From Escherichia coli (GTDB lineage Bacteria > Pseudomonadota > Gammaproteobacteria > Enterobacterales > Enterobacteriaceae), in assembly GCF_001677475.2 (NCBI RefSeq), contig NZ_CP015229.1: a stretch of DNA of 64,000 bases. One strand, given 5' to 3'. Made by a program: the position numbers. Below, in pieces: positions 37,801-40,800 of this stretch; position 1 is the first letter of the stretch; every line of letters starts with the position of its first letter.

Positions 37801-40800
37801 CTTCCTTTCGCATCGAGAAACGAGATTAACGCCTCGCCGGTCCCCAGTTCCTGGATTGCCTTTTCGGTATCAAACGCCGGATTGGCCCGCATGGTTTGCG
37901 CCGCAGCTTTTACTGCTTTCTGATCTTTGGGCGTAAAAGCCCGCAAAGCGTGTTGAACGCGATTACCTAGCTGTCCGAGCACATTATCCGGAATATCTGA
38001 CGGGTTTTGCGAAACGAACCAGACGCCCACGCCTTTTGAGCGAATAAGCCTTATCACCTGCTCAATCTTATCCAGCAGTACCTGCGGTGCATCGTTAAAC
38101 AGCAGATGCGCTTCGTCGAAGAAAAACACCAGTTTTGGTTTCTCCAGATCGCCCGCTTCAGGCAATTGTTCATACAATTCTGAAAGCATCCACAGCAGGC
38201 TGGCGGCGTACAGTTTCGGCATCTGATAAAGCTTCTCGGCGCTGAGGATATTGATAACGCCTTTACCGTTGGCATCGGTACGCATCCAGTCTTTGATATC
38301 CAGCATCGGCTCACCAAAAAAGTGCGCCGCGCCTTGCTGTTCCAGCGATAACAGCCCGCGCTGGATGGCACCAACCGATGCGCTACTGATATTACCGTAC
38401 TGATTCTGGAAGGATTTGGCGTTATCGCCGATGTACTGGGTAATCGCCCGCAAATCTTTAAAGTCGAGCAGCAACAATCCCTGATCGTCCGCAATGCGGA
38501 AGATAATATTCAGCACGCCAGATTGCACATCGTTGAGATTCAACAGCCGCGCCAGCAACAGCGGCCCCAGATCCGAAACCGTCGCCCGCACCGGGTGGCC
38601 TTTCTCGCCAAAGATATCCCACACCACCACCGGATTAGCATGAGGTTGCCAGTCATTTACGCCGATATTTTTAAGCCTTGCGAGCAGTTTTTCCGACGCC
38701 GTTCCTGCCTGTGCGACGCCGGTCAGATCGCCTTTTACATCAGCCATAAACACCGGAACACCGATTTCCGATAGAGACTCCGCCAGTTTTTGCAGCGTAA
38801 CGGTTTTACCCGTCCCCGTTGCGCCAGTAATCAGCCCGTGACGGTTAGCCATTCCCGGCAGTAAAAAAAGTTCTGTGTCCGGCGTGCGGGCAATTAACAG
38901 GGGTTCGCTCATGAGATTTCCTCCAGTTTCCTGCCTGGAGTATAGGCAACGGCTGCGCACTCTTCACCGCTAAATTCAGCAGATTGCGAGACGCCTTCCA
39001 AAGAGATTTAAACGCCGGGCGACAGGCACCCGGCAAAGAGATCAGAAGTCAGCTTTCAGAACCACGCGGTAGCGCGCTTTACCATCGCGTACATGCTGGA
39101 TAGCGTCGTTAATTTTCGACATCGGGAACAGTTCGGTAGTTGGCGCAACCTTGCTGCGGGCGGCAAAGCGCATCAGCTTACGCAACTCATAAGGCGTGCC
39201 GGTAGCAGAGCCAGAGACACTGCGATCGCCCGCAATTAACGTAAAGGCCGGAACAGACAGCGGCGTGAGAACCGCACCGACGGTGTGGAAATTACCGCCA
39301 TACGTCAGCGCCTCAAAATAAGGCTGCCAGTCGAGGCTGACGTTGACGGTGTTGATAATGAGATCGAACTGCCCCGCAAGTGTTTTCAGTGCCTGCGGAT
39401 CGCGGCTATTCACCACTTTAGCGGCACCCATCGCCAGTACTTCCTGCTCTTTCGCCGGATTCGAACTAAAGGCTGTCACCTCGCATCCCATTGCGTGCAG
39501 AAGTTTTATAGCGATATGCCCCAGCCCGCCAATACCAATTACCCCAACGCGGCTGGTAGCAGTGATATGGTGCATCAACAGTGGTTTAAAGACCGTGATA
39601 CCGCCGCACAACAGCGGCCCGGCGGACTCAATATCAATATTTTCTGGCAGTGGAATCACCCATTGCCAGTCCGCACGCAACTTCTCGGCAAAGCCACCGC
39701 GATTCATAATCGTCGGCACCGCACCTTGCTCGCAGTTGATCTGATTACCGCTAATACAGGCGTCGCAGTGACCACAGCTACGCGCCGTCCAGCCAATCCC
39801 GACACGCTGACCGACCTGCAAACCTTTATCCTGTGCGGCGCTCCCGAGCGCCACCACGCGACCAATCACCTCATGCCCGGCAACCAGTGGATATTGTGAA
39901 AATCCCCATTCGTTATCGATCATTGACAGATCGGAATGACAGATCCCGCAGTAATCCACCTGCACTTCAACATCTTGTGGCTTCAGCTCACCGGGATGGT
40001 ACTCATAAACTTCCAGTTCGCCGCCCGCTTCTTTTGCGGCATAGCTTTTTATCATCGACATTTTTTGTCCTTCTCTGGTGTTGTCTGGGAAGTGTAGAGC
40101 ATGGCAGGGCGGGGTGCCTGGAGTGTGACAAAGGTTACACATCACTGTATGCAATGCTGAAAATTTCAGCACTTAGCGAGGTGCGAGCAAGCTGGCTCTT
40201 GCATGGTGGCGTGCGACAGGTATAATCCACAACGTTTTCCGCATACCTCTTCAGTGCCGAAGTGGCGAAATCGGTAGACGCAGTTGATTCAAAATCAACC
40301 GTAGAAATACGTGCCGGTTCGAGTCCGGCCTTCGGCACCACATCGTATGCAAATCGAGTCGCTCAAGAGCGGCTTTTTTTGTGTCTGAAATCACCCATAT
40401 CCGTGCAGTATATAGGCCTGCCAGAAAAGCAGTTCAGTATTCTTCATTTTGTAGTCGATGGTCCCAAGTTTGCTCTGGCTGGAAGCTGCATCGTCCACAT
40501 TACGTGGGCAGGGTGGTTTCGCTATGCTACTTGAACGTTTTGACCATGTGGCTCAGGTAGCTAATATCAAAAGACGTCATTTTGTCTCCACGCCCACCTT
40601 GGTGAACATTCAATAAATAGTTTCGGTCGAGAGCAGTTATGTAGGGCTAGCAGACGAGATGCGCAGACATCTTGTTGAAGACAATTTTACTGACCACCTG
40701 AGAACGCTATTCTACCGAATAATATTTATTATCTTGGTGAATAATGATGATTACCTGTGTAACTATGGTTTTATGCTGATGGGACCGGCAGTACAATTTC

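Follow-up and report, generated by a model that had tools for sequence, protein, structure and literature searches.

Gene content of the yjgR-ahr junction

The DNA analysed here, a 64-kb stretch of an Escherichia coli chromosome (hereafter, the window), carries yjgR, ahr and the tRNA gene leuX in close succession (Table 1). YjgR starts with an ATG at 38912, preceded at a distance of 8 nt by a GGAGG Shine-Dalgarno sequence, and is 99.6% identical to the K-12 protein over 487 aligned residues (tblastn). Ahr (339 aa, coding 39045-40061, stop codon 39042-44) is 98.8% identical to its K-12 counterpart (tblastn) and was assigned to the NCBIfam equivalog AldhRedAhr (NF047908) with 550 bits at a cut-off of 470. 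Only this gene and 195 bp of intergenic DNA, together about 1.2 kb, separate leuX from the site at which K-12 carries the idn genes.

ORFs, NCBIfam and tblastn all confirmed the statement of an earlier note on this DNA that yjgR and ahr are neighbors without idn genes between them. The note was also right about a short spacer, but not about its size of approximately 80 bp (38961-39041): measured from the annotated ATG, the intergenic region (38913-39041) comprises 129 bp of non-coding DNA, as does the RefSeq gap between both genes in idn-less E. coli. The 81-bp gap starting at 38961 results when yjgR is taken as the longest possible ORF, which begins at a GTG further upstream. A tblastn search of the 64-kb window with the five K-12 proteins IdnD, IdnO, IdnT, IdnR, and IdnK yielded no match between yjgR and ahr, and the sole idn-related match in the window was an IdnT paralogue (58121-59392, 40% identity), which we take to be gntP on account of its size and of neighboring ORFs that we regard as fim and uxu. 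Scanning the 682-aa ORF that adjoins leuX with Pfam, NCBIfam, and PADLOC returned nothing usable. Since an Rfam scan of 38700-40500 identified the leuX tRNA only, the spacer contains no known sRNA or riboswitch.

Table 1. Features at the yjgR-ahr-leuX locus of the window.
Feature	Position	Strand	Remarks
yjgR	37410-38912	−	HerA-like C-terminal domain ATPase, 500 aa; ORF and RefSeq annotation of matching E. coli DNA
yjgR 5' region common to all alleles	38913-38951	−	GTTGCC-TATACT and 6-bp hairpin
Allele-specific spacer, idn-less form	38952-39041		90 bp; 5,087-bp idn cassette in K-12 instead
Segment A	38952-39029	−	78 bp, missing from every idn+ allele
GC-rich hairpin with T-rich tail, right after the ahr stop codon	39010-39035	−	Terminator consensus scan and fold
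12-bp CCGGCAAAGAGA	39030-39041		Exact match at 10550-10561 of the K-12 locus (L001)
ahr (yjgB)	39042-40061	−	NADPH-dependent aldehyde reductase; flanks the junction on the right
leuX, tRNA-Leu(CAA)	40256-40340	+	ARAGORN; Rfam tRNA model

The idn cassette of K-12

The corresponding K-12 locus, GntII (subsidiary gluconate / L-idonate; idnK-idnDOTR), reportedly described by Bausch et al. in J Bacteriol in 1998, occupies the same chromosomal site as the window's junction, between the same, identically oriented genes. The gene order yjgR-idnR-idnT-idnO-idnD-idnK-ahr-leuX in the K-12 annotation matches that given by the earlier note, whose inference that the window lacks the cassette at this site was correct, as only the 129 bp of non-coding DNA are found there. 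The alignment to K-12 that it had proposed revealed homology that reaches 39 bp upstream of the yjgR start, ends after 38951, and restarts at the ahr stop codon at 39042. In contrast to K-12, the window thus contains none of the 5 idn genes, 90 bp instead of 5,087 bp, and 78 bp without a K-12 counterpart. As judged from this alignment, the two arrangements are not related by a clean insertion or deletion; instead, 5,087 bp in K-12 take the place of 90 bp in the window.

One end of the cassette adjoins the ahr stop codon, the other the putative yjgR core promoter block. The repeats that the earlier note had suggested looking for around the insertion were not found, neither as direct nor as inverted repeats, at the cassette ends in K-12 (L001 10549 and 15635). 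Likewise, neither an integrase nor an IS element was identified within the cassette, for which only the five idn genes are annotated. Without terminal repeats, a target-site duplication, or an integrase/transposase, it does not have the make-up of a mobile island or transposon. Its GC content is 47.3%, compared to 54-56% in the flanks. Among idn+ E. coli, the cassette diverges by 0.1-0.9%, compared to 4.9% for yjgR and 2.6% for ahr; between E. coli and Citrobacter, the divergence is 17-22% for the cassette and 17-18% for the flanks.

Elements within the spacer of the idn-less allele

The block common to all alleles directly upstream of yjgR shows no variation among E. coli, E. albertii, two Citrobacter, E. 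cloacae, and Leclercia, regardless of the cargo that precedes it. It contains a -10-like hexamer, TATACT (38944-38939), which together with the preceding GTTGCC is unchanged in six taxa and all alleles, while the -35 region varies by allele. A strict sigma-70 scan of the spacer for -35/-10 hexamers at 16-18 nt spacing revealed no promoter; from its conservation, we infer that the GTTGCC-TATACT block is a candidate yjgR core promoter. Within the hairpin of the same block, 38940-38935 pairs with 38926-38921, and the 3' arm contains the GGAGG Shine-Dalgarno sequence, although the fold (z = -0.8) is not significant on energy alone.

The adjoining 90-bp spacer is conserved, according to the alignment, among idn-less E. 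coli, E. albertii, and C. werkmanii. Segment A, which makes up most of it, includes a 21-bp run (38956-38976) that is identical in C. werkmanii. Over the 60 nt upstream of GTTGCCTATACT, segment A matches C. werkmanii in register at 43/60 positions, and weak similarity was found to E. cloacae (25/60, p = 0.003) and Leclercia (22/60, p = 0.03). Hence, segment A resembles the DNA upstream of yjgR in Enterobacter and Leclercia, a resemblance not seen for the idn+ alleles (15/60 and 12/60, p > 0.5). These similarities suggest that segment A is probably the ancestral upstream/regulatory region of yjgR. Of the spacer, K-12 shares only the 12-bp CCGGCAAAGAGA, which lies beside yjgR there as the first 12 bp on the idn side. 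Since it is present in a single copy per allele, it does not represent a target-site duplication.

The hairpin following ahr has a 9-bp stem and a predicted free energy of -22.4 kcal/mol (z = -2.2, only moderately better than shuffled sequences), and shows the characteristics of an intrinsic terminator, with a tail, GTTTAAATCTCTTT, that is T-rich but interrupted. A hairpin of different sequence is found at the equivalent place after ahr in C. werkmanii. Therefore, this hairpin is likely the intrinsic (Rho-independent) terminator of ahr. Read along the minus strand, the region comprises the ahr stop codon, the candidate ahr terminator, an approximately 60-nt segment upstream of yjgR that is conserved between Escherichia and Citrobacter, the GTTGCC-TATACT block, and a 5'-UTR hairpin that may cover the yjgR ribosome-binding site. 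With contiguous yjgR and ahr, a homologous spacer of approximately 130 bp, segment A, and the hairpin after ahr, the window shows the features of the idn-less allele.

Distribution of the two alleles

The contiguous idn-less junction, with the window matched at 100% coverage, was found in 3,212 of 5,426 complete E. coli genomes (59%), and the idn+ state in 2,055 (38%), exclusively on the chromosome and with a median of one copy. The site close to leuX is thus indeed strain-variable, as the earlier note had stated; however, since the K-12 arrangement is the minority state, the absence of idn is no peculiarity of the window's strain. Over 181 nt comprising the spacer and the yjgR start, the identity of sampled idn-less genomes to the window is 96-99%, and the same 129-bp gap with a homologous spacer is found in the idn-less E. 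coli Nissle 1917, OkiPb01694, D7, and JCM 20135. A chimeric 361-nt query combining segment A and the cassette matched none of the 5,426 genomes, and two gapped scans of metagenome contigs did not find this combination either, although the latter are weak negatives, as exact patterns were required. Since no genome combines segment A with the cassette in this set, the two alleles are discrete. HS-02, with a gap of 55 bp, was considered as a fresh idn excision, but this was rejected because its sequence is that of the idn-less allele from which a further 74 bp have been lost through an internal deletion.

Beyond E. coli, the comparison comprised six enterobacterial loci, not including E. fergusonii or Salmonella, whose idn genes we assume to lie at the same yjgR-ahr site. 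E. albertii and Citrobacter werkmanii are idn-less with a homologous spacer, and Citrobacter sp. FP75 harbors the cassette at the same yjgR-ahr junction with homologous junction sequence. The matches listed in a search of genome contigs with YjgR were mostly Betaproteobacteria.

Two 9-kb stretches of the window were at best 97.6-98.2% identical to any of the 5,426 complete genomes, and the identity to E. albertii was 86-96%. With a divergence of 1.8-2.5% from all of these genomes, the window's chromosome belongs to a lineage outside those represented. Such identities would fit a cryptic lineage of Escherichia that still falls within about 95% ANI of E. coli.

Recombination around leuX

CFT073 (idn+) and Nissle 1917 (idn−) differ at only 3 positions in the first 13 kb compared, but by 2.5-5.6% from holC onwards, across yjgR, ahr, and leuX; their leuX islands differ as well. 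Judging from this pattern, the idn state has been switched between these strains by a long homologous recombination tract. The diversity of yjgR and ahr is 3-5%, compared to about 1% for lptFG, and the divergence of yjgR is 4.9% within idn+ genomes, 4.0% within idn− genomes, and 4.5% between them. Since yjgR/ahr haplotypes thus do not cluster by idn state, we abandoned the notion that each allele goes with a deeply diverged flank lineage of its own; the lack of clustering indicates that recombination has broken up the linkage between flanks and allele. In E. coli, integration and phylogenetic incongruence are known to concentrate in the leuX(-fim) region (Touchon et al. 2009, PMC2617782); the junction lies inside this hotspot and fits it in its high yjgR/ahr diversity and in the tract switching the idn state. 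Unlike insertions into the leuX tRNA, however, the idn site constitutes a two-state locus of its own, separated from the tRNA by ahr. The cassette itself has no mobility machinery, and its presence changes when a long tract of the leuX region is swapped by homologous recombination in the flanking core genes.

Origin of the idn-less allele

Taken together, the window very probably carries the idn-less allele as one of two old, discrete classes rather than a strain-specific deletion. In the alternative allele (K-12, CFT073, and a Citrobacter), a 5.1-kb segment of lower GC content, idnR-idnT-idnO-idnD / idnK, takes the place of the 90 bp. As to how the two classes arose, we lean towards an ancient insertion of the cassette accompanied by the loss of the 78-bp segment A, an event that would make the idn-less arrangement the structurally older one. 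In any case, because 78 bp of the idn-less spacer are missing from the idn+ alleles, the idn-less form is not a K-12-like allele from which idn has been deleted.

We infer the polarity of the original event, and an ancestor with both parts (yjgR-A-CCGGCAAAGAGA-idn-ahr) followed by two losses fits the structure equally. Such an ancestor, from which an ancient loss of the cassette would have produced the idn-less allele and a separate loss of segment A the idn+ allele, appears doubtful, but it deserves serious consideration. Both alleles contain the 12-bp CCGGCAAAGAGA where this order would place it, segment A tends to be deleted, as in HS-02, and the cassette diverges between E. coli and Citrobacter to the same degree as its flanks, implying that it is as old as the split of these genera. 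Furthermore, idn genes are also present in Salmonella (STM4484 is idnD; PMC6138749). However, no intermediate was identified in the complete E. coli genomes or by the two metagenome-contig scans, the GC content of the cassette is below that of its surroundings, E. albertii, the window's divergent Escherichia, and C. werkmanii are all idn-less, and two events are needed compared to one.

A recent deletion of idn by the strain or its lineage from a K-12-like idn+ chromosome is highly improbable. While the cassette lies at exactly this site in K-12 and in 38% of E. coli, and small spacer deletions do happen, as HS-02 illustrates, the spacer includes DNA (38952-39029) that occurs in no idn+ allele, the same spacer is shared by 3,212 E. 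coli genomes, E. albertii, and C. werkmanii, and the cassette ends lack microhomology that could explain a precise excision. There is similarly little to be said for the cassette being part of, or mobilized by, the leuX genomic island through site-specific integration, which would render the window an empty attachment site. The proximity to leuX, the low GC content of the cassette, and the co-variation of idn state and leuX island content between CFT073 and Nissle 1917 would be in line with it, but the conserved core gene ahr lies between cassette and leuX, the cassette lacks an integrase, IS element, and direct or inverted terminal repeats and accompanies many different leuX islands, and the co-variation is accounted for by one long homologous recombination tract. 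Finally, a collapse or loss of the idn region during assembly can practically be dismissed, since the identical junction recurs across 3,212 complete genomes, and since over 36042-43061 the window shows 99.97-99.99% identity to five independent drafts from NCBI, so that the junction is real.

Returning to the reading of two old allele classes, a more far-reaching extension seems rather unlikely, though it can be outlined: the idn+/idn− polymorphism at yjgR-ahr would predate the Escherichia-Citrobacter split and be maintained by balancing or niche-dependent selection. If so, the same junctions in several genera would point to long-term selection of this kind on the use of L-idonate, and the low divergence of the cassette (0.1-0.9%) within flanks diverging by about 5% would imply that recombination has recently carried a single idn+ haplotype into different phylogroups. 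As the cassette replaces DNA upstream of the putative yjgR core promoter, the alleles may also express the HerA-like ATPase YjgR differently.

Implications for idn variation in E. coli

From its gene content, the window's strain is predicted to lack GntII and, with it, the catabolism of L-idonate and 5-ketogluconate, the transporter IdnT, and the gluconokinase IdnK. The use of gluconate via GntI and GntP should be unaffected.

Variation in idn content has been described before: idnK was reported missing from ST131 H30/H22 strains (PMC5369007), idn content is variable in ST95 and pks-positive E. coli (PMC8545132), and Salmonella Typhi has undergone a lineage-specific loss of idnDOTK, which has been tied to gut versus extraintestinal lifestyle (PMC6138749). 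The idn operon is thus variably present in Salmonella Typhi as in E. coli, but whereas the former represents a lineage-specific loss, the idn-less allele of the window is an old and widespread form. The absence of idn is therefore an ordinary, already published presence/absence difference in E. coli and Salmonella, all the more so as most E. coli are also idn-less at yjgR-ahr.

Overall, the finding is of little consequence and provides a further marker of the mosaic structure near the leuX hotspot. For pangenome annotation, it means that K-12 represents the minority state and is unsuitable as the reference arrangement. Moreover, the idn state may differ even in very close strains, such as CFT073 and Nissle 1917, via one recombination tract. 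For studies of yjgR regulation and idn ecology, the idn-less allele would have to be regarded not as a deletion scar but as a form that probably retains the older yjgR upstream region.

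Absence of the idn genes between yjgR and ahr

In the window, yjgR and ahr lie head to tail on the minus strand (sequence 38700-39300 and ORF list) and are separated by 129 bp, not by the approximately 80 bp of the earlier note, since position 38961 is only an upstream GTG of the longest ORF. The yjgR start codon (ATG, 38912) is preceded at 8 nt by GGAGG, K-12 YjgR aligns with 99.6% identity from 38912 down to 37452 (tblastn), and Ahr reaches 550 bits with the NCBIfam equivalog AldhRedAhr (cut-off 470). No counterpart of the five K-12 proteins for L-idonate catabolism (Idn) was found in the 64-kb window by tblastn, the sole match being a 40% identical IdnT paralogue, which we take to be gntP from its size and the neighbouring fim- and uxu-like ORFs. 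Furthermore, the annotation of a K-12 derivative (L001) reads yjgR-idnR-idnT-idnO-idnD-idnK-ahr-tRNA-Leu, exactly the order given in the earlier note. Apart from the corrected coordinate, both the earlier observation that idn is absent here and its interpretation hold.

Homology between the window and K-12 includes all of yjgR and 39 bp past its start, ends at 38951 (…TATAGGCAACG) and restarts at 39042, the ahr stop codon. Between these breakpoints lie 90 bp in the window versus 5,087 bp in K-12 (L001 10549-15635), and the difference is therefore a replacement rather than a clean insertion or deletion. The only piece common to both is the 12-mer CCGGCAAAGAGA, which forms the end of the window spacer; in K-12 (L001 10550-10561), it follows one unmatched T at the yjgR-side breakpoint and is thus essentially the first cassette-side sequence. 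The other 78 bp of the spacer, designated segment A, are not found in K-12. As to flanking repeats, a point raised by the earlier note, neither direct nor inverted repeats were found at the ends of the cassette in L001, and no recombinase is annotated within it.

Features of the yjgR-ahr-leuX region (window coordinates)
Feature	Position	Strand	Remarks
yjgR	37410-38912	−	1,503-nt gene; same annotation by RefSeq in matching E. coli DNA
yjgR 5'-UTR hairpin	38940-38935 / 38926-38921	−	6 bp, CUCCAG…CUGGAG
yjgR-ahr gap	38913-39041		
Segment A	38952-39029		
21-bp run CGCACTCTTCACCGCTAAATT	38956-38976		
12-mer CCGGCAAAGAGA	39030-39041		final 12 bp of spacer
ahr (yjgB)	39045-40061 (stop codon 39042-39044)	−	product 339 aa
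leuX tRNA-Leu(CAA)	40256-40340		
682-aa ORF	41018-43066	+	~680 bp downstream of leuX; other strains have integrase-led islands there
IdnT paralogue	58121-59392		

Two alleles in E. coli

A survey of 5,426 complete E. coli genomes bore out that this is a strain-variable site near leuX: 3,212 (59%) are idn-less, with a contiguous match to window 37400-40200, versus 2,055 (38%) with the cassette, which is always chromosomal at a median of one copy. A chimeric query joining segment A to the cassette matched none of the 5,426 genomes; with both forms being common, these therefore represent two discrete alleles, of which the window carries the majority one. Neither form is confined to one background: the cassette occurs in K-12, BL21, strain C, O104:H4, CFT073, and an APEC O2:K1:H5 strain, and the idn-less form in Nissle 1917, D7, JCM 20135, strain 135, and OkiPb01694. 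Variable idn content is already known from the literature: ST131 H30 and H22 lack idnK, which is present in SE15 (PMC5369007), idn genes were found in 83% of one genome group versus 31% of the other in a pks-island study (PMC8545132), and S. Typhi lacks idnDOTK (PMC6138749).

The site in other genera

A YjgR-based scan of species-representative genomes returned at least six enterobacterial loci among the matches listed, and the six listed show three arrangements. In E. albertii and Citrobacter werkmanii, yjgR adjoins ahr (gaps of 132 and 139 bp), and both spacers align with that of the window, sharing the identical 21-bp run and a hairpin at the equivalent place. Citrobacter sp. FP75 has the idn genes at this site as well, in the K-12 order (idnR-T-O-D-K) and with junction sequence homologous to that of K-12. 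In Enterobacter cloacae, Enterobacter sp. Ag1, and Leclercia, approximately 1.8-1.9 kb separate ahr from yjgR; in E. cloacae, this interval encodes a 548-aa ORF (L006 8217-9863), presumably a dihydroxyacetone-kinase-like protein. Because the cargo differs in Enterobacter and Leclercia (loci L006, L007, and L008), the yjgR-ahr site is a multi-state cargo slot across Enterobacteriaceae.

The block GTTGCC-TATACT-CCA…CAGGA…GAGGA…ATG directly upstream of yjgR is invariant in all taxa and alleles compared, and the variable DNA always starts just upstream of it and stops at the ahr stop codon. Thus, each breakpoint falls where selective conservation ends, which would be at the predicted core promoter and 5' UTR of yjgR to one side and at the reading frame of ahr to the other.

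Predicted signals in the spacer

Directly past the ahr stop codon, the minus strand reads UGCCGGGUG-CCUGU-CGCCCGGCG, followed by UUUAAAUCUCUUU. This hairpin (9-bp stem, -22.4 kcal/mol, z = -2.2), which was also reported by a terminator scan and differs in sequence from that of C. werkmanii, is a predicted ahr terminator. The ahr stop codon of K-12 is directly adjoined by the cassette, and the equivalent position is occupied by a hairpin inside the idnK 3' end (GCAGCGCU…GGCGCUGC). No RNA family was found in the spacer by Rfam. No sigma-70 consensus in it passed a strict scan, so TATACT is a putative promoter element, assigned from its conservation.

The 3' arm of the yjgR 5'-UTR hairpin holds the GGAGG Shine-Dalgarno sequence, and the hairpin may serve to control translation. 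Escherichia and Citrobacter share its sequence without change, but the energy of the fold does not reach significance (z = -0.8). The 21-bp run is identical in C. werkmanii despite approximately 17% divergence of the flanking genes, is absent from all idn+ alleles, and may have a role in yjgR regulation. HS-02 represents a third state in E. coli: its idn-less spacer is down to 55 bp (L100 9053-9107) through an internal deletion of approximately 74 bp that takes out the greater part of segment A together with the 5' half of the predicted terminator.

Origin of the two alleles

For polarity, the 60 nt upstream of GTTGCCTATACT were compared in register with segment A, with p-values from shuffling. 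Matches were found at 43/60 positions in C. werkmanii (p <0.001), 25/60 in E. cloacae (p 0.003), and 22/60 in Leclercia (p 0.03), in contrast to the idn+ alleles of K-12 (15/60, p 0.55) and Citrobacter FP75 (12/60, p 0.85). These matches make segment A look like the ancestral upstream region of yjgR, lost from the idn+ allele.

The GC content of the cassette is 47.3%, versus 54-56% for pepA, lptFG, yjgR, and ahr. Between E. coli and Citrobacter, the cassette genes diverge by 17-22% each and yjgR and ahr by 17-18%; the cassette is therefore old in both genera and was not recently transferred between them. We favour, at somewhat better than even odds, an origin of the idn+ allele in which an ancient insertion of the cassette would have been accompanied by the loss of segment A. 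A less probable but still plausible alternative is that an ancestor had segment A as well as idn and that the two were lost in separate events; the chimeric query revealed no such intermediate among the complete genomes, and neither did exact-pattern scans of metagenome contigs, although these are weak tests. A deletion from any extant idn+ allele is ruled out as the source of the idn-less form, as its spacer holds segment A, which idn+ alleles lack.

Switching of idn state by recombination

The cassette hardly varies within E. coli: over six idn+ strains from different backgrounds, its genes differ pairwise by 0.1-0.9% on average, compared to 4.9% for yjgR and 2.6% for ahr in the same strains. 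Across 13 Escherichia sequences, mean pairwise divergence is 4-5% for yjgR and approximately 3% for ahr versus approximately 1% for the adjacent lptFG, and yjgR/ahr haplotypes showed no clustering by idn state.

CFT073 (L090, idn+) and Nissle 1917 (L091, idn−) are very close relatives, with 3 differences across the first 13 kb compared. Farther on, they diverge by 2.5% from holC to lptG, 5.6% in yjgR, and 5.0% from ahr to leuX, and their leuX islands differ. This pattern is the footprint of one long homologous-recombination tract, starting near the valS/holC boundary, that switched idn state and leuX island at once. Consistent with this, leuX-fim has been described as one of the two hotspots where phylogenetic incongruence in E. 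coli is strongest (PMC2617782). The idn state would change from strain to strain via such long tracts at the leuX region.

Lineage of the window and its leuX island

Over two 9-kb stretches of the window, one lying >30 kb from leuX, the best identities to any of the 5,426 complete genomes were 97.6% and 98.2%, and divergence from the best match was 1.8-2.5% everywhere tested (1-9000, 28000-37400, and 37400-40200). Identity to E. albertii is 86-96%; over 7 kb, that to five NCBI draft assemblies, GCA_016118575.1 and GCA_019140015.1 among them, is 99.97-99.99%. We infer from these identities a lineage of Escherichia just outside those with complete genomes, probably divergent or cryptic and not one of the mainstream phylogroups of E. 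coli; cryptic clade I-like would be our guess.

The 682-aa ORF downstream of leuX, called as a 678-aa gene in the near-identical drafts, gave no match in Pfam or NCBIfam and a weak one in PADLOC (PDC-M29B, E = 1.3e-3). The ORFs beyond it are presumably nan genes. No integrase was seen in the window from leuX to these ORFs, so the leuX island appears minimal here.

Taken together, the window has at yjgR-ahr the usual allele, that of the majority; both the accessory-gene site and the recombination hotspot in which it lies are already known. The additions made here are small: the exact breakpoints, the occurrence of the two alleles beyond a single genus, the recombination tract seen in the CFT073/Nissle pair, and a 78-bp allele-specific segment that rules out a simple deletion.
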